This document shows positions 8,242-32,000 of a stretch of 32,000 bases of DNA, piece after piece. Position numbers and translations under genes: made by a program. Location of the stretch: assembly GCF_036323395.1 (NCBI RefSeq), contig NZ_AP028907.1, positions 450,001 through 482,000 on the forward strand. Reading direction: 5' to 3'. Source of the DNA: Pyrodictium abyssi. GTDB taxonomy: Archaea > Thermoproteota > Thermoprotei_A > Sulfolobales > Pyrodictiaceae. Each line of letters opens with the position of its first letter. The stretch's first letter is position 1. The notes below the pieces were generated by a model. The model was not told the origin of the DNA. It was given only the letters and a program-made list of their open reading frames with translations, and searched no databases.

Positions 8242-8334
8242 TCCCCTCCACCGGAGCCCAGCAGGGGCACCATGGGCAGGCTGGAGTGCCTCTATGCTTA
8301 GAACCCTGGCCCGGTTCCCTACAGACCCATTGCT

Positions 8335-13682: not shown

Positions 13683-14095
13683 TTAAGCGCCTTCTCGCGC
13701 AGCCTGGTTACGAGCTTCTCGCCCTTCTCGCTGAACATGACTACGCCGTTCTCCACGCGCACAAGACCTCTCCTCTCCAGCTCCCGCAGCGCCTGGAGCA
13801 CCTTTTCCCTGCTGGCCCTCGTGTACACCTCCAGCTCCTCGAAGGGTAGCGCCTTCTTGCTGCCGAGCACCTCTAGAAGCCTCGCCTCGACAACCCTGCT
13901 GGCACCCCCTATCGGGGCACCGCTGTGGAGCGGCTCCTCGACCCACCCGGAGGCCGATCCCCTGCCCGGCGTCGAAACAGACTCGTCTTCCCGGCGCCGC
14001 CCGCTCTGGCTGGAGAGGAGCACGGCAAGCACAGTCAAGGCTGCTAGTGCGGCGAGGAGCGTGTAGAGCGCCGCTAGCGCGTCCATGGCCGTCAC
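13679..14095 (-). CDS. Membrane-anchored winged-helix (MarR/TrmB-like) protein
   Basis: N-terminal TM segment ALAALYTLLAALAALTVLAVLL, then a linker, then wHTH ARLLEVLGSKKALPFEELEVYTRASREKVLQALRELERRGLV. Its start overlaps the upstream stop (GTGA at 14092-14095), or an ATG at 14086 is used. Confidence 0.65.
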   Translation of the reverse strand: MTAMDALAALYTLLAALAALTVLAVLLSSQSGRRREDESVSTPGRGSASGWVEEPLHSGAPIGGASRVVEARLLEVLGSKKALPFEELEVYTRASREKVLQALRELERRGLVRVENGVVMFSEKGEKLVTRLREKALK

Positions 14096-16422: not shown

Positions 16423-16625
16423 AGCTGGCCACGCCCTGGGTCTATGGTTGGGCGTGTGTTGCAGTTAGGTATTGCGAATCGTAGCCATGGCGGCGTTGGA
16501 TACGGGTTATAGTGGTGTTGGGTAGCCGCAGAAGGTGGCGGTAAACCCGCTATAGGAGAAGTGCGCAGCCACGGCTGCCGGGCAGCTACAGCTAGACGGT
16601 ATAGTGGAATCCGCGGTCCTATAGG

Positions 16626-18275
16626 CTAGGGGGCGCCGGTCAGTGGAGCTGTGGGCAGCATCATAGGGGCTATCACTAGCCGCGATATAATCTCCATGGC
16701 CTTTACGCCCGCTACGGTCACCACCGAGAGCACTGCCATGTGGAAGAGCGATGACTCCAGGATGCTCCCCCTGACATACGCAATTATCACGGAGTTTACG
16801 AGGGCCAGCATGGCCAGGAAAGCGGAGACCAGCCATGTTATAGTGCTTAGGTCTGGCAGGGTTATGGTAAACGGGAGGTAGCCCACAGCGCTGCTCTGGG
16901 AGAGGGAGCCCAAGGCCTCATAGTAGTGCCCGAACAACGCCAATATGTTTATTATGGCTGATGTTATCGCAGCTACAAGCGCCTGCATAAGGTACACCAC
17001 GGCCTCGAAGGTGCGGGCTACCCGCGACCTATCAGCCCGTAGATCGCTAAGACGGATAAACAGGTCGCTGAGGATGAGCCCCGTCTCCGCAGGGTCGCCG
17101 CCGGCTTCAACAGCGTCTACGAATACATTGTTGCCTCTCACTACATCACTGTTGCTCGTCTCGAGGCTAAGGTACCGGAAGGCTGTGCGCGGCTCCACGC
17201 CATTGGTCACCCTGGCGTAGAGCCTTCTAGCGTATACTGTCAGCGGGCCGTACTCCGCCGAGAGTACAGAGGAGAGCGCGCCCGCGTAGCTCGGGATTAC
17301 CGAGTACGTGAGGCCGAGGCTCCGGACGAACACCTGGTAGAAAGACCCCAGCCTAGCTATATAGCCTTCTACGCGTATAGCGTAGAAGCCCGGGATGAGC
17401 GCAGGGAGCGCTAGGCCTAGAATCGTGTAGCTCGGGTCCCCGGTAGCAAGGTACACCGCGGCCCCCCCGAGAGCTGAGAGCACGAGCCCGCCCCTTGTCA
17501 GCATCCTGAGCCTCGCCAGCGAGCGGTTCATAGAGGCGGCGCCGCGATAGACTACGGGGTCTCTAGGCGCAATATACCGTGCAGCGACGGCGAACACCGT
17601 TATCACGGCAAGGAGCGCGGTCATGGAGGCGGCCATGCTCCAGGTACTGCCCCCCATGAACACTGCCAGTACGGTAAACGTGAGGATTACGAACATCGAT
17701 GCGCTCATAAGGGTGGCGTAGAGCCCTAGGAATATCCTAAGCAGCTCTATAGACCTCATATAGCTGCTAGTGAACTGCCGCACAGAGGTGTCGAGCTCCA
17801 CACGGAGAAACTTGACCACGTCATCACCGGTTCTTAGGACCTCGCTTAGCCTGGTGAGGAAGTCGCGGAGATACCGGTTCGGAGCCTGTTTAGCGACGAG
17901 CCGTGTCGCCCGGACAAACCCGTAGCCCCACTCCACGGCCAGCACTGCTATGCGGCTCAGTGCCCGCCCATAGGCGCCGTAGTCCCCTACCAGGGGCCTT
18001 AGCTCGAAGAGGCGCCTCCTCTCGGGCCTACCCGTGGCCACGGCATACATGTGAGCCATCACGAATAGTAGGTCTATGTCGAGTCCTCCAGCGGCCCTCC
18101 TAGCAGCGGGCACTAGGACGCGCAGGAGAACCACCGGTAGGGGCAGTACTAGCCCTAGGTAGCCGAAGGGACCCGGCACCAGGATAGCCATCACGGCGGC
18201 TAGTACGAGGCCCGCGAGCACCACCGGGTCGAGTAGGATCCTTGAGGCGGGCTCGCCGCGCACGGCTGCTAGCAC
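16626..18275 (-). CDS. arlJ: Archaellum membrane platform protein ArlJ (FlaJ)
   Basis: 549-aa polytopic membrane protein. It is the last gene of the operon, 9 nt after arlI. Size and position match FlaJ. Confidence 0.85.
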   Translation of the reverse strand: MLAAVRGEPASRILLDPVVLAGLVLAAVMAILVPGPFGYLGLVLPLPVVLLRVLVPAARRAAGGLDIDLLFVMAHMYAVATGRPERRRLFELRPLVGDYGAYGRALSRIAVLAVEWGYGFVRATRLVAKQAPNRYLRDFLTRLSEVLRTGDDVVKFLRVELDTSVRQFTSSYMRSIELLRIFLGLYATLMSASMFVILTFTVLAVFMGGSTWSMAASMTALLAVITVFAVAARYIAPRDPVVYRGAASMNRSLARLRMLTRGGLVLSALGGAAVYLATGDPSYTILGLALPALIPGFYAIRVEGYIARLGSFYQVFVRSLGLTYSVIPSYAGALSSVLSAEYGPLTVYARRLYARVTNGVEPRTAFRYLSLETSNSDVVRGNNVFVDAVEAGGDPAETGLILSDLFIRLSDLRADRSRVARTFEAVVYLMQALVAAITSAIINILALFGHYYEALGSLSQSSAVGYLPFTITLPDLSTITWLVSAFLAMLALVNSVIIAYVRGSILESSLFHMAVLSVVTVAGVKAMEIISRLVIAPMMLPTAPLTGAP

Positions 18276-18284
18276 CCGGCAGCG

Positions 18285-20051
18285 CTACTTTATTAGCTCG
18301 CCGCGCTGTATCCTGCTAAGGGCTTCCTCGAGGGCCTCTACCACCGCGTAGGGGGCCTCCTCCTTGCTGACGCGGCGCGCGTGCTCTACTGTGAGCGCGT
18401 GTATCCTAGCCAGCGTGCGGAACACCTGGTAGTAGTTGAACACCTTTCTCTCTATCATGGCCCTTATTATCCGCGCTCTCAGCTCCAGCTCGTCGTATAT
18501 TATGAACATGTTCCGCCTAGAGAGGCCGCGTTTCACGCCTATCTTCTCCTCGAGGAGATAGCTGGTGCCCCTTCCGCGGAACGTGAAGCGGTCGCTAACA
18601 GGGTCCCAGGTGAAGGTGGGGACGTAGAGCGTCGAGCCGCTTTTCGGGTCGTACCCCATGATCTCGTTGACGCTGAGCACTCTGCGTACGAGCACGCCTT
18701 CGCGGTAGACGGCGCTCTGTATGACCACGAAGTTCAGATTGTCTAGCTGCGATTTGGGGACGTTTATCGGGGGAGATGTGAGCCTCTGTACGAGCCTCTC
18801 GACGCTCGCAGCGTGGAAGGTGGCTAGGACTGGGTGGCCTGTCTGCATCGCCTGGAACGCTATAAGACCCTCCGCCCCGCGTATCTCGCCGACGATTATG
18901 TAGTTAGGCCTCTGGCGGAGCGCGGCCTTGAGCAGGTCGAACATGGTTACGCTGGTCTCTGGGCTCCCCGTGTCGCGCGTGAGCTCCCGCACCCAGTTGG
19001 GGTGCGGCACGTTCAGCTCAGCAGTGTCCTCTATAGTCACTATCTTAGCGGTAGGGTTTATGAACGCCACGATAGCGTTGAGTGTGGTGGTCTTGCCGGA
19101 GGCTGTCTCGCCGGATACGAAGCCGCTGTTCCCCTCGAGTAGGAGCATCCACAGGTAGGCCGCTATGCGCTCGTCGAAGGTGTTCCAGCTAACGAGCTGC
19201 GTCACGCTCAGCGGTATCTTGGCGACACGGCGTATGGTGAAGTTGCTGCCCTGGAGGCTCACGTCTGTGCCGAAGACTATGTTTATCCTGCTGCCGTCGG
19301 GCAGCGTGGCGTCCACTATGGGCCTCGCGTGGCTCACGGGCTTCCCTATCCTCTCGCTAAGCTCTATGATGAACTTGTCGAGCTCCTCGTGGGTCTCGAA
19401 GCGGAGGCTTGTCTCGAGGGGGCCGAACACCTTATGGACTATGTATATGTTCCCGACGCCGGGGCAGGAGATGTCCTCTATGTAGGGATCCTTCAGCACG
19501 GGCTCCAGTATGCCTAACCCAGCCTTGTCCCTCAGCAGGTAGTACACCAGGTTCCTATAGTGCGCCTGGTAGACGGGCACCCTCCTAAGGCTGTGCACCC
19601 GGGGCAGCAGGGCACGGTAGTCCACGGGGCGGGGTACCCTCTCGGCTATCTCGCCCAGCTTCCGGAGCAGTATCCGCCTCCGCTCCTCCAGATCCCTCGC
19701 CACGTCGTTCTCTGTTATGACCGAGGCGAGCTTCTCCTCTACTAGGGCGAACAGCTCCCGGGGAGGCCTCTCCGGCTCCACAGCCACGTACTTCCTGTAC
19801 CCCGACTCACCGCCCCCCGGGGGCGTGTAGATGTGGATGAATATGCCAGCCTCCTCGTCCACCACGTACATGACGTTCAGCCTGGCGGCTTTCCGGAGGC
19901 TCCTCGGCAGCTCCCTCCCGTAGTACGCGGGAACGCCTACCCTCGCGGCGACAGCCCTAAGATAGCGGGCTAGGTGGGGGAACCTCCGCGCCAGCCTCCT
20001 CAGCTCCCCCGCCTCAGCGGCCTGCAGTGCGGCAGCCGCCATAGACGCCAC
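18285..20051 (-). CDS. arlI: Archaellum motor ATPase ArlI (FlaI; VirB11/PilT-type secretion ATPase)
   Basis: Walker A GETASGKTTTLNA. Walker B region PNYIIVGEIRGAEG. Also ATFHA. Length is 588 aa. Confidence 0.92.
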   Translation of the reverse strand: MASMAAAALQAAEAGELRRLARRFPHLARYLRAVAARVGVPAYYGRELPRSLRKAARLNVMYVVDEEAGIFIHIYTPPGGGESGYRKYVAVEPERPPRELFALVEEKLASVITENDVARDLEERRRILLRKLGEIAERVPRPVDYRALLPRVHSLRRVPVYQAHYRNLVYYLLRDKAGLGILEPVLKDPYIEDISCPGVGNIYIVHKVFGPLETSLRFETHEELDKFIIELSERIGKPVSHARPIVDATLPDGSRINIVFGTDVSLQGSNFTIRRVAKIPLSVTQLVSWNTFDERIAAYLWMLLLEGNSGFVSGETASGKTTTLNAIVAFINPTAKIVTIEDTAELNVPHPNWVRELTRDTGSPETSVTMFDLLKAALRQRPNYIIVGEIRGAEGLIAFQAMQTGHPVLATFHAASVERLVQRLTSPPINVPKSQLDNLNFVVIQSAVYREGVLVRRVLSVNEIMGYDPKSGSTLYVPTFTWDPVSDRFTFRGRGTSYLLEEKIGVKRGLSRRNMFIIYDELELRARIIRAMIERKVFNYYQVFRTLARIHALTVEHARRVSKEEAPYAVVEALEEALSRIQRGELIK

Positions 20052-20055
20052 CCCG

Positions 20056-20766
20056 CTAGGACTGAGCGAGCACTATAGGCACAATCTTTATCCCGAAGGC
20101 TGGGTCCACGTCGAATGCTACGCTCCCCTCAACCACGTCGGGGGCGCCCCGCGCCTTCACCACCCGGAGCACCCGCACCTGCTTGCCGCCAACGCTGGCG
20201 AGGCCCAGGCTGTAGTAGACATCGGCGGCCGCACGCAGCTCCAGCATAGCAGGCTCTCCGAGGACACCGGGATGCACCGTAGCGATGAACGAGACCCCGC
20301 GGGCCACGAGCCTGCGCGCCACGTAGACGAGCCTGCCCACAGCGCTGTCCCCAGCAGCGAGGGGGGTGAGAGAGTCCACGGCAATGGCGTCGAAGCCGCT
20401 GGCCCTCTCCGCCCAGGAGAGCAGCCGCTGCAGCAACACTCCGGGGGGCTCGTGCCTCACAGTGTAGGTGCTGTACACCCTAAGCGAGCCCTTCACGAAG
20501 TAGCGGACTAGGTCTATCCGCACACCCCGTGCCTGGAGGAGCAGGTGCCGCGCCGTGGACTCTGTAGTGAACAGCGCCACGCGGAGCCCCGAGGAGAGCA
20601 TGCCATAGGCTATCTGCAGCACGAGGGTCGTCTTAGCGGTGCCGTTACCCCCCTCCACAACTATGAAGGCTGGGTGCGGGACGCCGCCGCCTATACGGCT
20701 GTCCAGCTCCTCATTCCCAGTGCTGACTACCCGTATCACCCAGCTAGCCGGGGACAGGGAGCGCAT
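20056..20766 (-). CDS. arlH: Archaellum KaiC/RecA-like ATP-binding protein ArlH (FlaH)
   Basis: 236 aa, single RecA-like domain. Walker A VVEGGNGTAKTT and Walker B-like AIAVDSLTPL. It lies directly upstream of arlI (4-nt gap). Confidence 0.88.
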   Translation of the reverse strand: MRSLSPASWVIRVVSTGNEELDSRIGGGVPHPAFIVVEGGNGTAKTTLVLQIAYGMLSSGLRVALFTTESTARHLLLQARGVRIDLVRYFVKGSLRVYSTYTVRHEPPGVLLQRLLSWAERASGFDAIAVDSLTPLAAGDSAVGRLVYVARRLVARGVSFIATVHPGVLGEPAMLELRAAADVYYSLGLASVGGKQVRVLRVVKARGAPDVVEGSVAFDVDPAFGIKIVPIVLAQS

Positions 20767-21253
20767 AGCTGCAGCACACCCCCTCGCCGCTGCACACGAC
20801 GAGCCTAACCACCGAGCCGGGGTCGGGGGTGAGCGTCAAGTTGATCGCGAGCACCGCGGACTCGCCCGGCATTAGGGTGGCCGTGGAGCCCGGCCTAGCG
20901 CTGTAGGCCCTCCCACCCACGACCCTGTAGAGCACCCTCAGCCCCGCACCGTAGGGGAGCACATCGTGCCTGGTCACCCTGCCGCTGGTGTACACCGCCA
21001 CGGCTACCGCCCCCTCCCCTAGGCTGACCTCTACAGAGCCCTGGTTCTCCACGGTAACGTTGAGAGCCCCGCCCTCGATGGACGCGCCTACTACTGCTAG
21101 CTTCGCGCGGGCCCGGTACTCCAGGTACCCTGCGAGATCCCGGGCCTCCTCGAGGAACACAGTAGCATAGCCCGTCCAGGCCTCCACGAGCACCAGGGCG
21201 GCTGATACGAGGACTAGTACGCCGATAGCAGCGCCTATAGCGGCTGCCGACAA
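20744..21253 (-). CDS. arlF: Archaellum FlaF/FlaG-family protein (assigned ArlF by gene order)
   Basis: 169 aa. An N-terminal hydrophobic helix (IGAAIGVLVLVSAALVLV) is followed by a beta-rich domain. The start is TTG. The position between arlG and arlH matches the Sulfolobus order B-X-G-F-H-I-J. Confidence 0.6.
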   Translation of the reverse strand: MSAAAIGAAIGVLVLVSAALVLVEAWTGYATVFLEEARDLAGYLEYRARAKLAVVGASIEGGALNVTVENQGSVEVSLGEGAVAVAVYTSGRVTRHDVLPYGAGLRVLYRVVGGRAYSARPGSTATLMPGESAVLAINLTLTPDPGSVVRLVVCSGEGVCCSYALPVPG

Positions 21254-21260
21254 GCTCCTC

Positions 21261-21749
21261 TCACCCCGTGTAGCCCGCTTCGAGCCGGGACCCGCTAGGC
21301 AGCACCATCACTACCCGGTAGGGCGGCTCCACGCCTAGCGGCGGGCAGGCCTTCACCTCAAGGGTCTCCCGCTGCTCCCAGACCCCGTTAGGATTCTCGA
21401 TCTCCCGGTAGCTCCAGCAGCCCAGGCCCTGAGAGCAGTAGTCCATGTACTCTAGGAGGAAGGTCTCCGAGCCGTTGCCGAGGATGAGGGTAGCGTCCTC
21501 CACGCCCGCTATAGGCGCCTCGCCCACGTTCTTCAGGAACAGGTAGTGGCAGCCATCGCTCTCGTTGACGAAACCGTACACGAACACGGCCCGCTCCGAG
21601 AGCCCCCGCGCGGCGGCAGCGCTAGCCGAGGCTATGCGCCCGCCCAGGTAGGAGGCGTTGTACAGTATAGCGCTCGCCACTATCATAGTGGCTGTCACAG
21701 CGGCTATCACTAGTATGGCCTCCGCTATCGGTGTCGAGACTCCTCTCAA
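21261..21749 (-). CDS. arlG: Archaellum FlaF/FlaG-family protein (assigned ArlG by gene order)
   Basis: 162 aa. It has an archaellin-like N-terminus GVSTPIAEAILVIAAVTATMIVASA followed by a beta-rich domain. Its TTG start overlaps the arlX-like stop (TTGA). Confidence 0.6.
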   Translation of the reverse strand: MRGVSTPIAEAILVIAAVTATMIVASAILYNASYLGGRIASASAAAARGLSERAVFVYGFVNESDGCHYLFLKNVGEAPIAGVEDATLILGNGSETFLLEYMDYCSQGLGCWSYREIENPNGVWEQRETLEVKACPPLGVEPPYRVVMVLPSGSRLEAGYTG

Positions 21750-22405
21750 CCCCGCCTCTCCCCCAGAGCAGCCAGAGCGAGGGCGACACGCGGCTCCAAC
21801 CCCCTCTCCCTAGCCCGCTCGACAGCACGGGCTATGGCCGTGATACGCCTGGCCTCCTCCTCGGAGAGCACCCCGGCCCTAACGTACTCCCTCACTATCT
21901 CCTCAACGACGCCGGCCCCGCTCCTCTCCACGATCTCGCCGAGCGCCCTGATTGCGGCCTGAAGCCCCCCGTTGCCAGCAGTACCCGCCGGCCCGGCTAG
22001 GGGGTTGGAGGCCTCCGAGAGGGCCTCCCGCAGCTCGAGCACCACAGCCTCCACGCTGGAGACAAGCCCCTTGACCTCGTCGTGCAGCTTGTCCAGCTTC
22101 CCCTCGACGCCGGAGAGCCTCTCGAGGACGCTCCTAGCGCTCTCCTGGACCGCGCTCCTCACAGCGTCCACCACGTTCTCCGCCACCTTCTCCGCGACTT
22201 CGTCCACAGAGGGCACAGCCGCCGTCACCCCCACGGCCTCCTCCTGGGCCTCCACCTCCGGGCCAGCCTCCTCCCCCGCGGGCTCGCTAGCCTCCTCCGC
22301 CCCGGGCTCCGGGGACGGCCCGGGGCCCGCCTCCCCGCCGGCTCTACGCACAAGCGGCCACACGAGCAGCCTACAGATAGGGCAGCTACACCTCCATGCA
22401 GCCAT
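21746..22405 (-). CDS. arlX: ArlX-like (FlaX) coiled-coil protein lacking the expected N-terminal TM helix
   Basis: It occupies the crenarchaeal arlX slot between arlB and arlG. It has an acidic Pro/Glu linker, then heptad-like VDEVAEKVAENVVDAVRSAVQESARSVLERLSGVEGKLDKLHDEVKGLVSSVEAVVLELREAL. The N-terminus MAAWRCSCPICRLL carries a C.C..C motif and no TM helix. Confidence 0.55.
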   Translation of the reverse strand: MAAWRCSCPICRLLVWPLVRRAGGEAGPGPSPEPGAEEASEPAGEEAGPEVEAQEEAVGVTAAVPSVDEVAEKVAENVVDAVRSAVQESARSVLERLSGVEGKLDKLHDEVKGLVSSVEAVVLELREALSEASNPLAGPAGTAGNGGLQAAIRALGEIVERSGAGVVEEIVREYVRAGVLSEEEARRITAIARAVERARERGLEPRVALALAALGERRG

Positions 22406-22449
22406 GCAGCAGCGCCACCCCCTCGCCCCGGATGCACCCCTCCCCGGGG

Positions 22450-22743
22450 CTAGGCCCCCCGGAGGCTAGCAGCGCCCACGACGAGCCAGTGCAGGCCTAG
22501 CGCCAGCGCTAGCAAGCCCCCGCCCAGAGCCGCGTAGCCGCCCCCCAGCTCCCCCTCGAGCACCGCGTAGAGCACAAGCCCTCCTATCAGCGCCAGCACA
22601 GCGCCTATAGCCGTGAACACCGCGACAACCGCTCTCCCGCCCAAGGCTACGACAGCCTCCGCAAGGCAGCTGGAAAATGGTGCGCGGCCCGCTCGGCCGC
22701 GCCACGCGGAAAAACAGTGGGGCCGGGCTCCGGGGCTAGGCAC
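22450..22743 (-). CDS. Small two-TM membrane protein between arlB and the arlX-like gene
   Basis: It contains the hydrophobic segments AVVAVFTAIGAVLALIGGLVLYAVL and YAALGGGLLALALGLHWLVVGAA. The GTG at 22743 lies 10 nt after the arlB stop; an internal TTG start would give about 64 aa. The N-terminal third is Arg/Gly/Pro-rich and may not be translated. Confidence 0.45.
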   Translation of the reverse strand: MPSPGARPHCFSAWRGRAGRAPFSSCLAEAVVALGGRAVVAVFTAIGAVLALIGGLVLYAVLEGELGGGYAALGGGLLALALGLHWLVVGAASLRGA

Positions 22744-22753
22744 GGCCCACGGT

Positions 22754-23386
22754 CTAGCCGCCTACGATGAGGTCCACGAAGTCGCTGGTGAGTACCGGCG
22801 GTATCTCGTACCTCACGACCAGCGGCGCGCCTACCGGCGGCTTGATCTCTATCTGCACCTTGCTGTAAGGCGGGAGACCGTTAGTATCAGTAACGTTCAC
22901 CGCAAGCAGCATTACCTCACCAGGCTCTAGTAGTGTATTGTTGTTACCCTGGGCAGCGATCCATATGGCTTTGTAGGCTTGGACATTGTTTACAGCAGTT
23001 AGGTTTGTGGTATTGGTTATGTATATGTTTCCGTTTGCATCACGCTGTACTATATTGGCATTTGCGATGCTTGTGCCGTTTGGCTTTTGCACCAGCAGTG
23101 ATACTACTGTCTTATCTAGGTCTATTGGGTTAGTGCCTGCGGTGAGCTTTACCGGGAGGAATATCATGGTGGCCTGTCTCTCGCCGCTTATGGTCTGGAC
23201 CTCAGCTATGGCGTTACCTGCTACGTCTAGCGCTCTGGTGGCGGAGTCGTAGGCCTTGGCCATTACTTCTTTGCTCTTCTGGCTGGCGAACATGCCCATG
23301 TTTATCGCCACGAATGCTAGCGCGCTCGCCACTAGTACGAAGGCTATTAGGACGATCGCGGCCTCTATACCCACTATGGCTCTCAC
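22754..23386 (-). CDS. arlB: Archaellin ArlB (FlaB)
   Basis: N-terminus MRA/IVGIEAAIVLIAFVLVASALAFVAINMGMF is the class III signal and hydrophobic archaellin N-domain, with Gly at +3 relative to the predicted cleavage site. It is the first gene of the operon. The start is GTG, with a GGGGTGAG SD-like element 8 nt upstream. An in-frame stop at 23411-23413 prevents any longer leader. Confidence 0.88.
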   Translation of the reverse strand: MRAIVGIEAAIVLIAFVLVASALAFVAINMGMFASQKSKEVMAKAYDSATRALDVAGNAIAEVQTISGERQATMIFLPVKLTAGTNPIDLDKTVVSLLVQKPNGTSIANANIVQRDANGNIYITNTTNLTAVNNVQAYKAIWIAAQGNNNTLLEPGEVMLLAVNVTDTNGLPPYSKVQIEIKPPVGAPLVVRYEIPPVLTSDFVDLIVGG

Positions 23387-23606
23387 GCAGGGCTCACCCC
23401 TTGGGGGATCTCACCTTGTGTCTGGTGCTCGGGCCGTGTGGAGAGGCGGCCCGGCTGTTGGGGAAAAGCGACGTGAAGGCCCGGCCGGTTATGAGGCGCG
23501 TTGCGTATAGCCCCAGCGGAGCAGGCTAGGGGGCGGCTAGGTGCGCGGCCCATAGCCCCCGGGGCAAGGGTTAAGAGGGCGGTTCTGCACGATACTACAC
23601 GCGGGA

Positions 23607-23631
23607 CCAGGGGTAGCCCCGGCTGCCGCCC
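23607..23631. repeat. 25-bp perfect inverted repeat, left copy (partner 25899-25923)
   Basis: ccaggggtagccccggctgccgccc is the exact reverse complement of 25899-25923. It lies in the arlB / KaiC-A divergent intergenic region. Confidence 0.95.
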
Positions 23632-23720
23632 GAGGAGCCGGGCCCGGCAGCATTAATCAGAAACCGTTTCTCCCAACCCGTACCCCGGGCCCCGGCCCGC
23701 CCGCCCGCGGAGGACAACCC

Positions 23721-23927
23721 ATGAAGAAGCGGAGCCTCCTCGCCCGCGCTCTAGGCGTCGTAGCGCTCTTCGCCTCCATAGGGGTCTGGGCGGCTGGCGC
23801 GGCACCAGCCTCTATAGCGTTGCTAGCCGCCGCAGCGCTAGCCGTGCAAGACGGCTTCGAGGAGCCCGCGGCCGCTCTCCCAGGCCAGTGCCTCTCCTGG
23901 GAGCCCTGGAGGTGCGCACTGCTATGA
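23721..23927 (+). CDS. Small (68 aa) membrane or signal-peptide protein translationally coupled to KaiC-A
   Basis: The ATG is preceded by GGAGG (7-nt spacer). The sequence is MKKRSLLARALGVVALFASIGVWAAGAAPASIALLAAAALAV. Its TGA overlaps the KaiC-A ATG (ATGA at 23924-23927). Confidence 0.5.
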   Translation: MKKRSLLARALGVVALFASIGVWAAGAAPASIALLAAAALAVQDGFEEPAAALPGQCLSWEPWRCALL

Positions 23928-25399
23928 ACCTGGTGGAGTGGGGGATCGAGGGGCTGGATAAGCTGCTCGGCGGTGTTCCTCGTGGGGCTGTTGTGCTTCT
24001 CGCTGGGAACCCTGGTACTGGTAAGTCTACTTTCGCGGCGAAGTTCCTCTACGAGGGTGCGCGGCGCCTCGGCGAGCCCGGGGTGTACCTCAACTTCGTC
24101 GAGCCCCGCCAGGACTTCCTCAGCCACATGGCCATGCTCGGCATGGACTTCGAAAGCCTCGAAGAGAAGGGACTATTCCACTACGTAGAAGCACTAACAA
24201 TCGTAGACGAGGAGGCTCTTGTGGCTCAGCTGGAGGAGCTCGAGAGCCTCGTGCGCGAGACGGGCGCGAAGAGGCTGGTAGTAGACAGTATAACTGTCAT
24301 AATGCAGCTCGTGAATGGCGTTTCCAAGGCCAGGGAGCTGCTGCAGAACTTCTTCGTTAACGGGCTCAAGCCCCTCGGCGTCACCTCGATACTCATAGCG
24401 GAGCACCCCTACGGGGCCCGCATGGTAGGATACGGCATCGAGGAGTTCATAGTAGACGCCGTCGTTCTGCTCCGCTTCGAGAGCCACGCGGGGAAGATGC
24501 GGAGGGTGCTCGAGCTGCGTAAGGCACGCTGGGCCCCGATATACCAGGTGGAGCTGCCCTTCGAGATACTCCCCGGCAGGGTGGTAGACATTGCTGTGCC
24601 GGAGGAGCCGAAGTCCGTCCCAGCGCCGGTGGGGGAGAGGGTGTACAGCTTCGCAGACATAGCCCGTGCAGCCCGGCGGCCGGGGCGCCAGCCTCTCGTG
24701 CGCACGCTCCTCCCCTCGGGCTCGCCGCTGCCCGTAGAGGTAGCGAGCTCCGTCTACTTTTCGCAGGGCTCGCAGGTGCTCGTACATGTTAGCGAGAGCA
24801 TACACACGAGGTTCCTAGTAGCGTTGCTGGCAGCCACACTCCACGTGTACACCGGGGAGAAGGTGGCGGTATTCAGCTTCAAGTCGGCGCCGTCGCTGCT
24901 GGAGCGGATGACGCGCTGCGTATACTCGATCATGTCGGGTGCAGCGGGCCCCGGAGACGGCATAGTATTCGATGCGGTAAACCCCTCGGCCTACCTGCCG
25001 GAGCACATAGTCTCCCAGCTCCGCGGCCTCGTGGAGAGCGAGAAGCCCTCCCTCCTCTTCCTGGAGGGCATAGAGGGCCTAGAGGAGCTCTACGGTGCAG
25101 CCCTCCACAGCATGATGGTGAACGTGCCCTACATGCTGCGCCGGCTCGGCGTAACCACGCTGTACTTCTACGCCAGCGACGCGGCGCCGCAGGAGAAGCG
25201 CATGCTACGCCTCCTACGCATCGCAGCCGACATGAAGATAGACGTCTACCCACAGGCGCTCGAGACGAAGCTGGACCAGAGAGGCAGGAAGAGGCTCGTG
25301 CAAAAATACCGCATGTGGGTCAAGACGCCGACAGTACGCCTGGAGATAGTTAAGGAGTTCGACATGCAGCCCCTCATGGAGAGGCGCTGCGTCTACTAG
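23924..25399 (+). CDS. Two-domain KaiC-like ATPase, paralogue A (second domain lacks a P-loop)
   Basis: Domain 1 has Walker A GNPGTGKST and Walker B-like RLVVDSITV. Domain 2 is homologous in pattern but has GSQVLVHVSESIHTRF where a P-loop is expected. The preferred start is the ATG at 23924 (GGAGGTG SD upstream, ATGA coupling); the track ORF begins at 23888. Confidence 0.85.
   Translation: MNLVEWGIEGLDKLLGGVPRGAVVLLAGNPGTGKSTFAAKFLYEGARRLGEPGVYLNFVEPRQDFLSHMAMLGMDFESLEEKGLFHYVEALTIVDEEALVAQLEELESLVRETGAKRLVVDSITVIMQLVNGVSKARELLQNFFVNGLKPLGVTSILIAEHPYGARMVGYGIEEFIVDAVVLLRFESHAGKMRRVLELRKARWAPIYQVELPFEILPGRVVDIAVPEEPKSVPAPVGERVYSFADIARAARRPGRQPLVRTLLPSGSPLPVEVASSVYFSQGSQVLVHVSESIHTRFLVALLAATLHVYTGEKVAVFSFKSAPSLLERMTRCVYSIMSGAAGPGDGIVFDAVNPSAYLPEHIVSQLRGLVESEKPSLLFLEGIEGLEELYGAALHSMMVNVPYMLRRLGVTTLYFYASDAAPQEKRMLRLLRIAADMKIDVYPQALETKLDQRGRKRLVQKYRMWVKTPTVRLEIVKEFDMQPLMERRCVY
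23968..24216. repeat. 249-bp perfect inverted repeat, copy in KaiC-A (partner 29748-29996 in KaiC-B)
   Basis: Checked in 10-nt blocks: 23968-24216 equals the reverse complement of 29748-29996 with no mismatch. It covers about codons 16-98, including Walker A. The sequence diverges on both sides. Confidence 0.95.
24335..24459. repeat. 125-bp inverted repeat with 1 mismatch, copy in KaiC-A (partner 29505-29629)
   Basis: Block-by-block comparison found a single difference at 24422 (a vs g). It encodes ELLQNFFVNGLKPLGVTSILIAEHPYGAR.VGYGIEEFIVDA. It is separated from the 249-bp block by 118 diverged nt. Confidence 0.9.
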
Positions 25400-25695
25400 C
25401 GCCTACGCCGCCTGGCCGGCAGCGCGTAGAGCGGAACCCCGTCCACGATCCTCTTCTCCACAAGCCCCTGCCGTACAAGCTTCTTCAGCTTCCTCCAGGC
25501 AACGCTGCGGTGGACGCCTAGCTGCCTCGCTATCTCGCTCGCCCGGAGGGGCCTCCCGGACTCTGCGAGCACTCGTAGAATAGCCTCGTCCCTCTCATCA
25601 AGCCCGTTCTCCCCGACCACCGGCGCCTCGCCGCCCCGCCAGAGTTCCGAGACGATATCGAGTAGCCGGGATACACGGGAACGGAGAGACAGCAA
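25396..25695 (-). CDS. Small winged-helix transcriptional regulator (MarR/ArsR-like)
   Basis: 99 aa. DEAILRVLAESGRPLRASEIARQLGVHRSVAWRKLKKLVRQGLV. It is convergent with KaiC-A and overlaps its end by 4 nt. The start is TTG. Confidence 0.65.
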   Translation of the reverse strand: MLSLRSRVSRLLDIVSELWRGGEAPVVGENGLDERDEAILRVLAESGRPLRASEIARQLGVHRSVAWRKLKKLVRQGLVEKRIVDGVPLYALPARRRRR

Positions 25696-25898
25696 CGCCG
25701 AGACACCGTTCCATACCAGAAGCCAGCACGCCCCTTAGCTACCCGCGCAGAGGCGTATTACGACTCAAGCATAGGAGGATATATAGAGGGCGCGGAGCCT
25801 ACTGGCACGTATTAAAACGGCACTGTGGCAGGCCCACCATGCTAACCTCCGCTAACTATAAACGAGCGACAACAATCCCTACTACACCTGCGGGGCGA

Positions 25899-25923
25899 GG
25901 GCGGCAGCCGGGGCTACCCCTGG
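25899..25923. repeat. 25-bp perfect inverted repeat, right copy (partner 23607-23631)
   Basis: gggcggcagccggggctacccctgg read directly. The core is shared with 71-91. Confidence 0.95.
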
Positions 25924-26148
25924 ACCCTCGGCGGCGGGGACGGTGACCCCGCGCGTGGGGGAGGCCCCGCCGCCCACGCCTACCCTCTATGCTTCTTGCC
26001 TCCTCTCTCCCAGCACCCGGTCCGCTGCACCCCGGGTTCCCCGCGGGAGCCGCTTATAGACCAGTCTGCACCGGTAAATATGCCGCCGGGGGGGGGGGTA
26101 CTTTATGTATTTCGTATTCCGCTCTCCCCGCAGTACGAGAGAGCCGGC

Positions 26149-27246
26149 CTAGCCCCCGACTGTGTCATGGCCTCCAAGGTGCTCGTTGAGCTGCTCCACG
26201 TATTTGAAGCCGTTGTCGGGGAAGACGAGGACGTAGTCGCCGTCCTCCAGCTCCCCGCTGTCCAGCAGCCTCGTGAAGGCTGCGGCGACGGCTCCGCTGC
26301 TCATGCCGGGGAGTATGCCGTCCCGGCGGGCCACTGTCAGCAGCGCCTCTATCGCCTCGCGCCGGGTCACCTCTACCACGCGGTCGGGCTTGACCCAGTG
26401 TATCCACTTCATCCCGGTCTCTATCCTGCGTATGCCGGGTATGACCTCGCCCCGGGCGGGCTGCACTGTGTAGATCTTCACGCCGCCCACCCTGTTGCGG
26501 AAGTAGAATGTTATCGCGGCCATGTGGCCTGAGGTGCCGATGCCCCCGATTATGCCCCGAGGCTTTATACCGGCGTGGCGTAGCTGTAGCTCGAGCTCCT
26601 TGGCCATGTAGCGGAGGTGTACCAGGAAGTTGGCGTCGTTGCTGAACTGGTCTATGTGGAGTGCCCCGTCCCGGGCAGCATCCCTCTTCACGTCCTCTAG
26701 CAGCTCGACGGTGAGCTGCTTCCCGGCCCGGACAACCTCGGCACCCAGGGCCCGTAGCAGGGTATCGCTCGCCCGCTGTATGACCCGGGGGATGTAGAGC
26801 CTAGCCCGGAACCCGTATATAGCGGCCATAGCGGCGAGCGCCATGCCCGTATTGGTCGAGGTCGCCTCGTAGACTAGGCTACCCTGCCAGCCGTTCTCCA
26901 GCGCCCGGCGGACCATGTACCAGCCTACGCGGTCCTTGACGCTCATACTGTAGGGGTTGTACCACTCGAGCTTAGCCCAGGCCCTCACCCCGCCGCTGAA
27001 GAGGCTACGCAGCATGACAAGGGGCGTAGGCCAGCCGCGGTAGAGAAGCTCCAGCGTGTCCCGGAAAACCCTCATCGGCGAGGGGTCTATGTCCTCGTAG
27101 AACCCCATATCCTCGAGGCTAGCCTCCACGGGCACGGGGTTCTCCTGCGACACGGGTACACGGCGGACGCCGAGTAGCCGGAGAGCCCAGACTAGGCGGC
27201 GCGCCTCCTCGCCCACTACTCTAACGGATCCGTGTACTGGTATCAC
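26149..27246 (-). CDS. PLP-dependent cysteine synthase of the archaeal O-phosphoserine sulfhydrylase type
   Basis: Motifs: LEWYNPYSMSVKDR (PLP lysine), STNTG, GIGTSGHM, IPGIRRIETGM, GDYVLVFPDNGFKY. This motif set and the long N-terminal extension resemble the characterised Aeropyrum pernix O-phosphoserine sulfhydrylase, as I recall its sequence. Confidence 0.8.
   Translation of the reverse strand: MIPVHGSVRVVGEEARRLVWALRLLGVRRVPVSQENPVPVEASLEDMGFYEDIDPSPMRVFRDTLELLYRGWPTPLVMLRSLFSGGVRAWAKLEWYNPYSMSVKDRVGWYMVRRALENGWQGSLVYEATSTNTGMALAAMAAIYGFRARLYIPRVIQRASDTLLRALGAEVVRAGKQLTVELLEDVKRDAARDGALHIDQFSNDANFLVHLRYMAKELELQLRHAGIKPRGIIGGIGTSGHMAAITFYFRNRVGGVKIYTVQPARGEVIPGIRRIETGMKWIHWVKPDRVVEVTRREAIEALLTVARRDGILPGMSSGAVAAAFTRLLDSGELEDGDYVLVFPDNGFKYVEQLNEHLGGHDTVGG
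26179..26236. repeat. 58-bp perfect direct repeat, copy 2 (partner 13593-13650)
   Basis: Lies inside the 3' end of the intact cysteine synthase gene and is identical to 13593-13650. Confidence 0.95.
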
Positions 27247-27330
27247 TCCTCGATCCCCCGCTGCGGAGGAGAGCAGCTAGCAGGTCTAGCAGCTCCTCGA
27301 GCCCTGGAGCCTCTCCGGCATCAAGCTCCT

Positions 27331-27836
27331 CTATGGGCATGAGTGTATAGCCAGCCAACCCGGTGCACACCACCACTGCTCATGCGTGTACAGGGTCTCG
27401 GGATGGGGGTGTGGGCGCCCCTCCACACTCGGGTCTAGGGTAGATCCTCGAGAGGCGTATCTGCCCGGGGGCTCGAAGCAGACCCGGTGGCGGCTAGTCC
27501 TGGGCGGTAGGAGCTTGCCCTCGAGCCCAGCTCTAAGCACTGTAGCCTTGTCAACGTGTAGCCCGGGCCTCCACGAGCCGGCCTCTACGCACGGCGGGCT
27601 GTAGTCGACTAGTACTGCTGGTACACGGCGGGCGCCGAGGCGGCAGAGCGCCGACACCCGGTGGTGCCGTCGAGTATGACTAGTGTCTTCGTGTCTACCA
27701 GTACTGGGCGCTCTACCCGGCCTCTACGCCGTATATCCTCTACCAGCTTCTCAACCCTCTGCGGCTCAACTATCTCGTGGGCGCGTAGACGCTCTAGAGG
27801 GACTAGTGCCACCCTGTAGAGCCTGGCTACGCTCAT
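27331..27836 (-). pseudogene. ParB/sulfiredoxin-fold protein (SerK-like serine kinase candidate) interrupted by a frameshift in the DGHHR motif
   Basis: ORF 27609..27836 reads ...LERLRAHEIV...PVLVDTKTLVILDG and then runs out of frame. ORF 27331..27657, shifted by one nt, continues HHRVSALCRLGARRVPAVLVDY. Restoring one C in ggc(c)accacc at about 27663-27668 recreates ILDGHHRVSAL. The gene sits directly upstream of the cysteine synthase gene. Confidence 0.7.
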
Positions 27837-27862
27837 GCCTGCTAGCGCCTTGCACCCCAGCC

Positions 27863-27883
27863 GCCTATAACACTGTTATAGGC
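27863..27883. promoter_or_regulatory. 21-bp perfect palindrome gcctataaca-c-tgttataggc containing TATA-like cores
   Basis: Read directly. It lies 27-47 nt upstream of the SerK-like ATG (27836). That spacing is compatible with a TATA box for a leaderless or short-leader transcript overlapped by an operator. Confidence 0.45.
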
Positions 27884-28022
27884 TTAATTAGTGTTTCTCT
27901 CACTGATTACGAACCTAACGATAATATAGAGACTAACCCTCCCGGCCGGAGGCTAGGCACCCAGCGGCAGAGAGTGGCTCCCGCTAGCTCACCCGCCCAG
28001 AAGGTAACGCGCCCTGCAGGCG

Positions 28023-28337
28023 CTAGCCCGAGGCGCGCTGTATAAGCCGCTTAACCGGCTCCGGGTCCCCCTTCTCAAGCGCGGTGATAGCATTGAGGAC
28101 CTCGGGCGCGGACCGGGAGAACGCGAGCAACACGCTACGGAGGATGACGCGGGCCTTACGGGGGTCCCGCTGGTAGGAGAGGAGGACCCTGTAGGCGGCC
28201 AGGGGGTCGCGCACCAGGAGGGTGGCAAAGTCCACACGGTACGCGGCGAACGCCCTGTTATCAAGCACAGCGAGGGCACCCATAGCGACGGAGCGTAGCC
28301 GCTCACGGACAAGCTGTACCGCTCGGCCGCTCGGCAT
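28023..28337 (-). CDS. Hypothetical helical protein (104 aa) downstream of KaiC-B
   Basis: ATG-initiated ORF on the same strand as KaiC-B, with a plausible amino-acid composition. No family was recognised. Confidence 0.45.
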   Translation of the reverse strand: MPSGRAVQLVRERLRSVAMGALAVLDNRAFAAYRVDFATLLVRDPLAAYRVLLSYQRDPRKARVILRSVLLAFSRSAPEVLNAITALEKGDPEPVKRLIQRASG

Positions 28338-28543
28338 AAGCGTTCGGCCCCTCTACCATAATGTCTACGTCTACTATGATGCAGGCTCAGCCTACGCCGC
28401 TGGATGGTCTAGCACGAGCCAATTTAATAACAGCACGCAACAGCCCCGGCCCCTAGGGCTAACGACGGCCAGAGGCCCTCTCGTTGTCCCTCCCCGTCTA
28501 TGGCTGTGTGTAGTGGTGTAGTGGGCGGGCTTCCTGCGTGCCC

Positions 28544-30091
28544 CTAGCCTATGCAGTGCAGTTCTGCGAGCTTCTGTGTATTCACCGACATGTTAAAGTG
28601 TAGGTGTGCTAGCTGGTGGTAGACCTCCACAGCCAGGTCTAGTGTGAGCCCCTTGAACCTCTCCGCGGCGAGGTCTGATAGCCTGCAGGGGCTCGTCTCC
28701 ATGTACATGCCCATATCGAACATAGGCGCCAGGGCAAGCTCCGACATGGCTGAGCGTACTGGGAACGAGTAGATGTAGAACCCTGTTATCCCGTTCCTCT
28801 TGTTGCGCAGCAGCGTGTTGTACAGGTTGTAGGTCAGGTCCTTTGCCTCCACCATGGACTCGAGGATCTCGAGGCCCTCGAATATCGTTATCTCCGGCCT
28901 TATCTTCTGCATAGCCAGGTACATTATATCGTTGAGCTCGTTAACTGTGTACACGCTCGGGTTGAGCGACATCACGTGTAGCTGCTGGAGCCTCTTAATG
29001 GCTTCAACATCTTGCTCGGCGCCGGTGCCTAGTATGCAGCGCGCCATGTTTGATATAGCCTGGGGGCTCGACTTGAAGCTTATGACCAACACATCAGCCG
29101 GCGTGCCCATGATGAAGGAGGTCGCGAGCATCGAGGCGACGAGCCTGCTGTTTACAGTAGTCGAGAGGCCTATGAGCACCTGAGCGCCCCGCGGCACGGA
29201 GAGGACGCGGCAGAGCATGCCTAGAGCCTCGCGGGCCTCCTGCATCGAGCCGGGCACGCTGATGCGCACGATGTTCTTGCCGTCTACGCGTAGCGCGCCC
29301 AGCAGCTCGCAGAGGTTGTAGGTCTTAGTGACGTCGAATGGTGGTACCTCCTCGGGCTCCTCTGGCAGGCTTATCTCTATGACGACGCCGGGCCTCATGT
29401 AGAAGGGTAGCTCGGCCTGGTGTATGGGGGCCCAGCGGGCCTTACGCAGCTCTAGTATGCGCTGAAGCTTGCCCTGCTCTATCTGGAACCTGAGGATAAA
29501 CACCGCGTCTACTATGAACTCCTCGATGCCGTATCCTACCACGCGGGCCCCGTAGGGGTGCTCCGCTATGAGTATCGAGGTGACGCCGAGGGGCTTGAGC
29601 CCGTTAACGAAGAAGTTCTGCAGCAGCTCGCGTATCTTGGCCTTGTCTCGGACTATCTGGAGCATAGCCGTTATACTGTCTATTACTATCCTCTTGGCTT
29701 TGACCTCTTCTACGAGTTTTAGAACCTCCTCTAGCTGTGATATGAGGGCCTCCTCGTCTACGATTGTTAGTGCTTCTACGTAGTGGAATAGTCCCTTCTC
29801 TTCGAGGCTTTCGAAGTCCATGCCGAGCATGGCCATGTGGCTGAGGAAGTCCTGGCGGGGCTCGACGAAGTTGAGGTACACCCCGGGCTCGCCGAGGCGC
29901 CGCGCACCCTCGTAGAGGAACTTCGCCGCGAAAGTAGACTTACCAGTACCAGGGTTCCCAGCGAGAAGCACAACAGCCCCACGAGGAACACCGCCGTTGA
30001 GGAGCCTGTCGAGGCCTGGTATGCCTGAGGGCACAATCTCTATACGTTGGGTGGAGACGCCGAGGTCTTGCATCAGATCCCTGGTTTTCAT
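28544..30091 (-). CDS. Two-domain KaiC-like ATPase, paralogue B (second domain lacks a P-loop)
   Basis: Walker A GNPGTGKST and Walker B-like RIVIDSITA. The second domain has GAQVLIGLSTTVNSRL in place of a P-loop. The C-terminal half is visibly less GC-rich and strongly diverged from KaiC-A. Confidence 0.85.
   Translation of the reverse strand: MKTRDLMQDLGVSTQRIEIVPSGIPGLDRLLNGGVPRGAVVLLAGNPGTGKSTFAAKFLYEGARRLGEPGVYLNFVEPRQDFLSHMAMLGMDFESLEEKGLFHYVEALTIVDEEALISQLEEVLKLVEEVKAKRIVIDSITAMLQIVRDKAKIRELLQNFFVNGLKPLGVTSILIAEHPYGARVVGYGIEEFIVDAVFILRFQIEQGKLQRILELRKARWAPIHQAELPFYMRPGVVIEISLPEEPEEVPPFDVTKTYNLCELLGALRVDGKNIVRISVPGSMQEAREALGMLCRVLSVPRGAQVLIGLSTTVNSRLVASMLATSFIMGTPADVLVISFKSSPQAISNMARCILGTGAEQDVEAIKRLQQLHVMSLNPSVYTVNELNDIMYLAMQKIRPEITIFEGLEILESMVEAKDLTYNLYNTLLRNKRNGITGFYIYSFPVRSAMSELALAPMFDMGMYMETSPCRLSDLAAERFKGLTLDLAVEVYHQLAHLHFNMSVNTQKLAELHCIG
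29505..29629. repeat. 125-bp inverted repeat with 1 mismatch, copy in KaiC-B
   Basis: Reverse complement of 24335-24459 except for one position. Confidence 0.9.
29748..29996. repeat. 249-bp perfect inverted repeat, copy in KaiC-B
   Basis: Exact reverse complement of 23968-24216. Confidence 0.95.
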
Positions 30092-30346: not shown

Positions 30347-31237
30347 CTAGCTGACTACAGCTGGCGAGGCCAGGTAGGCCAGTATACTAGCTATTGTAAG
30401 CGTTATTATGTACTTGGAGGCCATCAGTGTGTATCCGTGGACAACCCTGGCTATCACAATAGCTGAGGCTACCACTATCACGAGAAGGGAGTAGAAGTAG
30501 AGGCCTCCAAGCAGGTCCGGGTCTATCGCTGCGCCGAAGAGCCCGCCCCCAGCTACCCCTGCTACGAGCGCCTGGACAATGCCAGCAGCCACGGCGTACG
30601 TTAGCGAAGCCAGGGATACGACAAAGCTGTACTCCGATAGGCGGGACTGCGTGAGCTTCATCAGGCGGCGGCTCTCCCGGGAGTAAACCGCCGCGGAGGA
30701 GAGCACCTCGTGCACCATGCCGCCGCTCAGCGACGCGGCGACTATGCTGCGGGCTAGTAGCCTCACGCGGGGCGGGGCTCTCTTGAAGGCCTCCTCGAAG
30801 GCCTTCTCGAGGTCCCCGGTGGCGCGGTAGATGTGGGCCATGCGCTCCACGTAGGTGCCTAGCGGCGGTTTAATCATCTTCGCGGCCCTCAGCAGCGCCT
30901 CAGCCGTGGAGCCGCTTGACGCGGTCAGCCCAGCGTAGGTGGAGAGCAGCTCTGCTAGCTGCTCGTCGAAGATGTCCATGACCCTTACGAAGCGCCTAGC
31001 GTAGAGGTATACGGGTAGCGAGGCCGCCGCGAGGACCCCTGCTATGAGTATCATTGTCCCCTTGTCTGTGACCACTGGTATGAAGTGGAAGAGCTGCACC
31101 CGGTACCGGGGCGTAATCCAGTCGATGCCTAGTACAGTGGCCAGCTTGGGGGCTAGCAGCGGGTAGCCGGTTATCCAGGCTATGGCCAGCCCCACCGCGG
31201 CAGCGAGCACGAGGACTCTGGCTATGGCCCCGGTCAC
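30347..31237 (-). CDS. Half-size T2SSF-domain membrane protein (TadC/FlaJ-half-like platform subunit)
   Basis: 296 aa: TM, then a cytoplasmic helical domain FDEQLAELLSTYAGLTASSGSTAEALLRAAK...YRATGDLEKAFEEAFKR, then C-terminal TMs. The GTG start has a GGAGGGGAGG SD 12 nt upstream. Confidence 0.7.
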   Translation of the reverse strand: MTGAIARVLVLAAAVGLAIAWITGYPLLAPKLATVLGIDWITPRYRVQLFHFIPVVTDKGTMILIAGVLAAASLPVYLYARRFVRVMDIFDEQLAELLSTYAGLTASSGSTAEALLRAAKMIKPPLGTYVERMAHIYRATGDLEKAFEEAFKRAPPRVRLLARSIVAASLSGGMVHEVLSSAAVYSRESRRLMKLTQSRLSEYSFVVSLASLTYAVAAGIVQALVAGVAGGGLFGAAIDPDLLGGLYFYSLLVIVVASAIVIARVVHGYTLMASKYIITLTIASILAYLASPAVVS

Positions 31238-31256
31238 GGCGGCAGCGCCTCCCCTC

Positions 31257-32000
31257 CTAGATCCTTATCCTGGACACCATGGAGTCTACTATCACTATGA
31301 CGGTGGCGCTGAGCATTGGTATCACTATGAACGTGGAGAGGAACAGTATAGTATCTATGCTCAGCCCGGGCATCATCGGGGCGCCCTGGAAGCTGATGGC
31401 CAGGAGGAGGCCGACAACGCCTATAGCCACGGGGAGCATGACGCACGCTGCGACGAATATCTCTAGTATCGCGCCTAGGCTGTTCGAGAGCTTCTCTATC
31501 TCGACCTCGAGAGTGTAGAGGTACTCAGTTATAGAGGCCGTGATTATCTCGCGGACCCCGGTGCCCGTCCTTGCGGCGGCTGCTAGGCCCGCGAAGAGCC
31601 CCCGGAGGCTAGGAACGGGGGTGATGCGCGCCGCCTCCTCTAGGACCGTCTCTACGGGTATGCCGGCCTTTATCCCGGAGACAATGTACTCCATCTCGAG
31701 GAGGAACTCCTTCAGCTCCCTGGCATCCTTCTCGTAGAGCATGATGAAGGCCTCTGAGAGCCCAGCCCCCGCCAGGAGCTTGGTGGCAAGCGCCTCCGCG
31801 AAGAGCAAGAAGCGTGGCTCCAGCTTACCGCCCCGGCTCTTGTATGCGAGCATCGGGAGGGATATGTAGAGGGCCAGCATCAGCGTGAACGCGGTGACCG
31901 CGGCTCCTACGGCTACAGCTACCGCGACGGGCAGGGGTAAGCCGAGGCCAACGTGCATCATTATGAAGGCGGTTACGGCTATAGATGATACGACGATAAC
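31257..32000 (-). CDS. Half-size T2SSF-domain membrane protein (TadB/FlaJ-half-like), 5' end possibly beyond the window
   Basis: It has the same architecture: LEPRFLLFAEALATKLLAGAGLSEAFIMLYE...GIPVETVLEEAA... followed by C-terminal TMs. The reading frame stays open to position 32000. Confidence 0.7.
   Translation of the reverse strand, partial: VIVVSSIAVTAFIMMHVGLGLPLPVAVAVAVGAAVTAFTLMLALYISLPMLAYKSRGGKLEPRFLLFAEALATKLLAGAGLSEAFIMLYEKDARELKEFLLEMEYIVSGIKAGIPVETVLEEAARITPVPSLRGLFAGLAAAARTGTGVREIITASITEYLYTLEVEIEKLSNSLGAILEIFVAACVMLPVAIGVVGLLLAISFQGAPMMPGLSIDTILFLSTFIVIPMLSATVIVIVDSMVSRIRI

Follow-up and report, generated by a model that had tools for sequence, protein, structure and literature searches.

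We analysed a 32,000-nucleotide (nt) window of the Pyrodictium abyssi genome (contig NZ_AP028907.1, positions 450,001 to 482,000; all coordinates below count from the first letter of the window) in which two genes for KaiC-like ATPases, here called KaiC-A and KaiC-B, lie near each other in opposite orientation. The two genes are deeply diverged over most of their length and share two short islands of perfect or near-perfect nucleotide identity within their N-terminal ATPase domains. We conclude that ectopic (interlocus) gene conversion has very probably homogenised these two patches, and that it probably did so recently, after the insertion of the archaellum block on which KaiC-A arrived. The genes and the shared tracts are as follows.

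23924-25399, plus strand: KaiC-A, 491 amino acids, with an N-terminal KaiC/RecA-like ATPase domain and a rare A-type C-terminal domain
28544-30091, minus strand: KaiC-B, 515 amino acids, a KaiC-domain ATPase resident in a conserved operon of the pilus type
23968-24216, plus strand: tract 1, KaiC-A arm, codons about 15-98, from the Walker A region through DEEAL, perfect over 249 nt
29748-29996, minus strand: tract 1, KaiC-B arm, the exact reverse complement of 23968-24216
24217-24334, plus strand: unconverted spacer of 118 nt, 58% identical to KaiC-B and A-type at 6 of 12 diagnostic sites
24335-24459, plus strand: tract 2, KaiC-A arm, 124/125 identical, with the mismatch at 24422
29505-29629, minus strand: tract 2, KaiC-B arm, the partner of 24335-24459

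The initial annotation of this DNA had described a 249-nt perfect and a 125-nt one-mismatch inverted match, and base-by-base extension bore out both. The reverse complement of 29748-29996 equals 23968-24216 without a mismatch, and 24335-24459 agrees with 29505-29629 at 124 of 125 nt, the lone difference, at 24422, being ATG (Met) in KaiC-A and GTG (Val) in KaiC-B. A repeat finder returned the inverted arms 23968-24238 / 29726-29996 (271 nt, 97%) and 24324-24622 / 29342-29640 (299 nt, 80%), and the arms correspond to homologous, in-frame codons of the two KaiC-domain open reading frames (ORFs). Outside the tracts, a codon alignment of KaiC-A and KaiC-B gives 50-64% identity over the remaining N-domain, and in the C-terminal halves 23-60% nucleotide and 7-53% amino-acid identity, with values of 0.23-0.64 for single 15-codon bins there; the heavy divergence that had been noted elsewhere in the genes, above all in their C-terminal halves, is real.

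Chance is excluded as the source of the tract identity. In 20,000 codon-column shuffles of the KaiC-A/KaiC-B codon alignment, the longest identical run reached at most 56 nt for the whole gene and at most 101 nt when the N-domain only was shuffled, compared with 251 nt observed in the same alignment. At third codon positions two identical runs stand out, of 83 and 41 codons, while no other exceeds 5. Where the two proteins have the same amino acid, the codon is also the same at 117 of 118 positions within the tracts, compared with 38 of 63 outside them, and pairs of orthologues compared over the same windows share only 56/109, 49/98 and 38/87 such codons (about 50%). The identity might instead be ascribed to extreme purifying selection and codon bias acting on a conserved ATPase core without any exchange of DNA, and the tracts do span motifs (Walker A and the LIAEHPYG region) that are conserved at the protein level in all homologues. 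However, protein-level constraint is ruled out because the synonymous sites are homogenised as well, against the roughly half of codons shared in orthologues, and even a close orthologue, at locus L005 of an uncultured Pyrodictium lineage, is just 84% identical to KaiC-B in tract 1 and 92% in tract 2. The synonymous-codon test thus disposes of purifying selection as the source of the tract identity, and we assign this explanation a practically negligible probability.

The type of the shared sequence was assessed against B-type references (L005, L001 and the P. occultum gene) and A-type references (L003 and a third KaiC-like gene of the window, which has no identity islands with either KaiC-A or KaiC-B).

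About 273-1745, minus strand: KaiC-C, used as A-type reference, an A-type pseudogene that carries an in-frame stop (TAG) and three or more frameshifts

The sequence common to both genes in the tracts matches L005, the nearest KaiC-B orthologue, at 84-91% and A-type genes at 66-76%. The C-terminal half of KaiC-A groups nearest the A-type protein P0002, and the tracts group nearest KaiC-B and then its orthologues. The diagnostic sites of KaiC-A divide along the gene as follows.

Tract 1: 7 B-type, 2 A-type, 2 other
Spacer: 3 B-type, 6 A-type, 3 other
Tract 2: 8 B-type, 1 A-type, 0 other
Downstream: 6 B-type, 7 A-type, 5 other

Both tracts are a B-type backbone set in an A-type gene. The proposal of gene conversion made in the initial annotation therefore stands, carried by the sharp islands, the homogenised synonymous sites and the phylogenetic incongruence, and it needs correcting in that the homogenised unit is a pair of KaiC-domain patches and not the "P-loop core". 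In a three-way comparison of KaiC-B among P. abyssi, L005 and the related locus L006, lineage-specific changes number 5, 4 and 5, respectively, in tract 2 and 38, 44 and 53 in the C-terminal half. Because the tract 2 changes are balanced, KaiC-B is the unchanged donor for this tract, giving the direction B to A.

Sharp islands had first been seen as lying in otherwise old paralogues, and this part of the picture is too simple: KaiC-A came on a 12.5-kilobase (kb) block that only the P. abyssi lineage carries, inserted at the 3′ end of its cysteine-synthase gene. The features that define the insertion are as follows.

13670-26167: inserted block, 12.5 kb, between 88-nt direct repeats
13582-13669: left repeat copy, an orphan fragment from the PALP 3′ end (GGYVLVFPDNGFKYVEQLNEHFGSQSSG, then a stop of its own) that adjoins the cysteine desulfurase gene
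26168-26255: right repeat copy, the 3′ terminus of the intact PALP gene
26149-27246, minus strand: PALP gene, cysteine synthase / O-phosphoserine sulfhydrylase-like, pyridoxal phosphate-dependent, with ~38 codons at its N-terminus shifted out of frame compared with relatives

The 88-nt repeat has a 59-nt perfect core, and similarity ends outside the repeat. Between its two copies stand a MarR-like gene, a gene for a CARDB/PKD surface protein, the complete archaellum operon arlJ-I-H-F-G-X-B, a small ORF, KaiC-A and a winged helix-turn-helix (wHTH) gene; the block has two wHTH regulators in all. Two loci from uncultured Pyrodictium lineages, L006 (about 85% nucleotide identity) and L007 (about 74%), share with the window a collinear run of the T2SSF genes, KaiC-B, a 104-amino-acid gene, the ParB_N (SerK-like) gene and PALP. 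In both, PALP runs directly into cysteine desulfurase (12271-13521 in the window), which constitutes an empty site, and the last ~75-100 nt of their PALP align to both 26168-26255 and 13582-13669. Because of this empty site and the flanking PALP repeats, 13670-26167 is an insertion confined to the lineage of P. abyssi. The 11.8-28 kb stretch is wholly missing at this locus from P. occultum and from a Hyperthermus metagenome-assembled genome.

From this arrangement we infer a recombination mechanism and an order of events. Most simply, a circular molecule carrying a PALP 3′ homologue and the archaellum block may have entered the 3′ end of the cysteine-synthase gene by a single crossover. Such an integration, with direct repeats and with one end restoring the target gene, would be of the Campbell type; it would have left the 88-nt direct repeats and brought KaiC-A close to the resident KaiC-B, inverted and 5.5 kb apart. 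The general homologous-recombination machinery could then have formed a heteroduplex between the two ATPase domains, and mismatches resolved as short, uncoordinated patches would have produced two tracts with 118 nt unconverted between them, and possibly the unconverted site 24422. For tract 2, KaiC-B sequence would have been copied into KaiC-A.

Gene conversion of this kind is a known phenomenon, found here in a hyperthermophilic archaeon. In Sulfolobus acidocaldarius, homologous recombination is accompanied by short-patch, discontinuous conversion (PMC3367456), where donor tracts are broken by blocks of recipient markers and by isolated unconverted sites, much as the 118-nt block and the lone A-type-like base at 24422 interrupt the pattern here. 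Unlike that work, in which cells were transformed with marked pyrE DNA, the present case is a natural intragenomic exchange whose mechanism is read from its products. The inversely oriented tufA and tufB genes of Salmonella and Escherichia coli undergo gene conversion and occasionally inversion (PMC5485169, PMC6735719). They resemble the KaiC pair in being inverted homologous genes with non-reciprocal exchange through general recombination, and in both systems the repeats could in principle invert the intervening DNA. The tuf genes, however, are far apart and homogenised over nearly their full length, whereas only patches of 249 and 125 nt are shared by the deeply diverged KaiC genes, which lie 5.5 kb from each other. 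The host also differs, being an archaeon that would lack MutSL homologues according to the S. acidocaldarius paper (PMC3367456).

Several points weigh against recent conversion after insertion, at least in so simple a form. The evidence comes from a single assembly of the P. abyssi genome. No integrase or mobility gene is found by Pfam among the ORFs of the block, and the mechanism of integration is read from the repeats alone. In tract 1, the KaiC-B gene of P. abyssi carries 31 lineage-specific changes compared with 4 and 10 in the other two lineages, and this substitution excess extends about 200 nt upstream, into KaiC-B sequence that is absent from KaiC-A. Since the excess reaches beyond the sequence shared with KaiC-A, a single B-to-A event does not account for the whole history of tract 1. 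The tract 1 changes are also not enriched for A-type nucleotides (16/31 compared with 7/14 in controls), and copying from A to B is for this reason not demonstrable for tract 1; at the protein level, 11 residues differ from the nearest B orthologues, and 7 of them have the A-type state. Either a divergent or imported KaiC-B 5′ allele may then have been copied into KaiC-A, or exchange may have run in both directions.

A wider stretch of KaiC-B, 30200-29721, which takes in the promoter-proximal region, the leader and tract 1, holds 70 P. abyssi-specific substitutions in ~480 nt, compared with 15 for L005 and 31 for L006. This suggests that the 5′ end of KaiC-B was imported or is fast-evolving.

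The tract identity could also have been produced by assembly or polishing, if the reads of one copy had corrected the other or if the repeat had been collapsed and then re-expanded. An identity that is absolute across 249 nt would agree with this, and the several apparent frameshifts in the window (in KaiC-C, the SerK-like gene and the PALP N-terminus) may reflect indel-prone sequence. The matches nevertheless fall at homologous in-frame codons and are bounded by about 57% identity, and cross-mapping needs copies that are already near-identical. One mismatch is retained in tract 2, and each copy lies between unique sequences that are collinear with relatives. The frameshifts argue in the same direction: L006 is without the portion of KaiC-C that matches window positions 690-1669, and because the L006 copy is also partly deleted, the decay of KaiC-C is real and old, and one indel of the SerK-like gene is a 2-nt deletion and not a homopolymer slip. 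We therefore regard an artefact as highly improbable, and gene conversion as the better account of the islands.

The initial annotation had further proposed that 24217-29747 is an invertible segment. As a recombination switch, a crossover in tract 1 or tract 2 would repeatedly flip this segment and swap the promoters and N-terminal leaders of the two genes, placing the B body under the arlB-divergent promoter and the A body in the pilus operon, and conversion would be a by-product that keeps the repeats identical. The geometry asked for by this proposal is present, with repeats that are inverted, in frame and at homologous codons, and 249 base pairs of perfect identity are ample for homologous recombination. 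The prediction that both chimeras would be translatable was also correct, as in-silico inversion of 24217-29747 leaves intact ORFs of 498 and 508 amino acids. Both KaiC genes adjoin surface-filament operons, and recombination between inverted hsdS paralogues is a known bacterial switch design (PMC4948785, PMC6620402). At the same time, a Pfam search of the ten ORFs at 23.7-32 kb finds KaiC, wHTH, PALP and T2SSF only and no recombinase or invertase domain, and the other genes of the inserted block are likewise without a recombinase domain. The KaiC-B side keeps the ancestral gene order, and the PALP repeats are still direct in the assembly. The pair is no older than a lineage-specific insertion, so that no conservation hints at selection for switching, and the segment holds unrelated cysteine-metabolism genes, some of them frameshifted. 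What stands of the proposal is thus its geometry, and a change of orientation is unsupported. We consider a repeatedly flipping switch of this kind unlikely.

Searches for the alternative orientation covered relatives, other assemblies and metagenomes. The relatives are uninformative on flipping, L006 being an empty site without KaiC-A and the contigs of L005 and L007 stopping before the KaiC-A position. Exact-protein look-ups of KaiC-A and KaiC-B gave no other assemblies or orientations, and one of the P. delaneyi protein P0004 was likewise empty; metagenomes yielded zero loci with the A-type C-terminal profile or with a degenerate DNA pattern encoding RRLGEPGVYLNFVEP, a peptide specific to the tracts; and a scan of genome contigs returned two KaiC-B relatives only, P. 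abyssi itself being missing from its output. A crossover inside tract 1, where the two genes do not differ, would exchange no more than the promoters and the initial 15 or about 30 residues. In the invertible hsdS loci of type I restriction-modification systems, among them SpnIII of S. pneumoniae (PMC4948785, PMC6620402, PMC7394358), in-frame inverted repeats within paralogous genes can likewise give translatable chimeras by inversion. Those loci, however, occur in both orientations in clonal populations and have silent partial copies and often an adjacent recombinase gene, none of which is shown for the KaiC pair. Inversion now and then, as a side effect of recombination, is plausible, and a programmed switch is not supported. 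In a further version, RadA would drive a recombinase-independent 5.5-kb flip-flop that exchanges the promoters and N-terminal leaders of archaellum- and pilus-linked KaiC-like regulators; we hold this to be very unlikely, and if true it would give a hyperthermophilic archaeon a heritable, reversible switch between swimming and adhesion.

The products of the two converted genes can be placed within the KaiC family. Pfam finds the PF06745 KaiC domain in both, with E about 1e-57 each and at residues about 17-240, and the C-terminal halves, read by eye, are without the GxxxxGK[ST] P-loop motif. The NCBIfam circadian KaiC model scores 135.5 and 160.1 bits for the two proteins at a cut-off of 408. 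An assignment as bona fide circadian KaiC fails on the single P-loop KaiC domain in each protein and on scores far under this cut-off; KaiC-A and KaiC-B belong among the ATPases of the KaiC family and are not clock KaiC.

KaiC-B has many orthologues across the Pyrodictiaceae and stands in its ancestral context. The operon order T2SSE-T2SSF-T2SSF-KaiC-B-104/112 amino acids is kept in P. occultum (L004) and in three uncultured Pyrodictium lineages (L005, L006 and L007), and the window shows the same order minus T2SSE, whose expected place is beyond 32000. The neighbours of KaiC-B in the window are the following.

30347-31961, minus strand: two T2SSF (TadC-like) genes, upstream of KaiC-B
28023-28337, minus strand: 104-amino-acid hypothetical protein, always 3′ of KaiC-B in relatives, a candidate partner

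In subclade 4B of the archaeal type IV pili, a KaiC-like ATPase is paired with a small alpha-helical protein (arCOG01174 / arCOG03758) (PMC4858521). KaiC-B resembles that arrangement in following a T2SSE/TadC-like operon and preceding a protein of ~104 amino acids, and the two genes would fit the ATPase/helical-protein pair of subclade 4B. KaiC-family ATPases occur at archaeal pilus and archaellum loci (PMC4858521), and KaiC-A likewise stands beside an archaellum operon. The comparison rests on gene order and not on arCOG membership, and KaiC-A and KaiC-B each consist of one KaiC domain and a P-loop-less C-terminal domain. Inside KaiC-B of L006, an ENA scaffold, a run of N at about 8181-8281 has about 50 nt duplicated on each side; it is a scaffolding gap and not a disruption of the gene.

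KaiC-A, which is 100% identical to a P. abyssi protein on a 2.22-Mb contig, is of a rare type. P0002, with 57% identity and an unrelated gene context, is the sole relative found over the full length, and an exhaustive search with the C-terminal half of KaiC-A gave 14 matches among 1.84 billion representative proteins, mostly weak or fragments; A-type genes were not found in a scan of viral contigs. The maximal KaiC-A ORF begins earlier than the start used here, at GTG 23888. Upstream of KaiC-A, a putative gene for a hydrophobic protein of 68 amino acids (23721-23927) ends in a TGA that overlaps the KaiC-A ATG (ATGA), as expected for translational coupling; it lies in a GC-rich region and has no family match.

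Two further genes lie between KaiC-A and KaiC-B.

25396-25695, minus strand: winged-helix regulator, convergent with KaiC-A, Lrs14/Sta1-like but below family cut-offs
27331-27836, minus strand: ParB_N (SerK-like) gene, broken by two deletions (1 nt and 2 nt) when compared with L005/L006

The SerK-like gene that the initial annotation listed in the segment is thus present but frameshifted in P. abyssi, its deletions relative to L005/L006 lying at ~27666 (1 nt) and ~27471 (2 nt). At about 27240-27360, two more 1-nt deletions shift the first ~38 cysteine-synthase codons out of frame. The frameshifts of the SerK-like and PALP genes reflect either real decay or sequence errors.

Within the island, a 32-nt inverted repeat (23600-23631 / 25899-25930, 30/32 matching, with none expected by chance) encloses exactly the small ORF, KaiC-A and the wHTH gene. 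It shows no special fold (z = -1.1) and does not occur in the five loci L001-L005, and an Rfam scan of 22-32 kb gave zero matches. The repeat may be left over from mobility of a cassette, or it may serve as a shared regulatory site. Elsewhere in the window, at 11307-11767, a 161-amino-acid DUF2795-like gene that is conserved in P. occultum and L006 contains an internal tandem duplication with a 237-nt period and 74-84% identity.

The direct-repeat-bounded archaellum block is the most interesting by-product of the analysis, and together with the conversion it presents a newly inserted block that has been partly merged with a resident homologue. For annotation and phylogeny the finding is a warning, since the N-terminal domains of these KaiC-like genes will yield misleading trees. 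A true inversion of the intervening DNA would make the locus a rare switch driven by homologous recombination in Archaea. As it stands, the KaiC pair provides a clean natural case of discontinuous gene conversion in a hyperthermophilic crenarchaeal genome, resembling the short-patch recombination of Sulfolobus.

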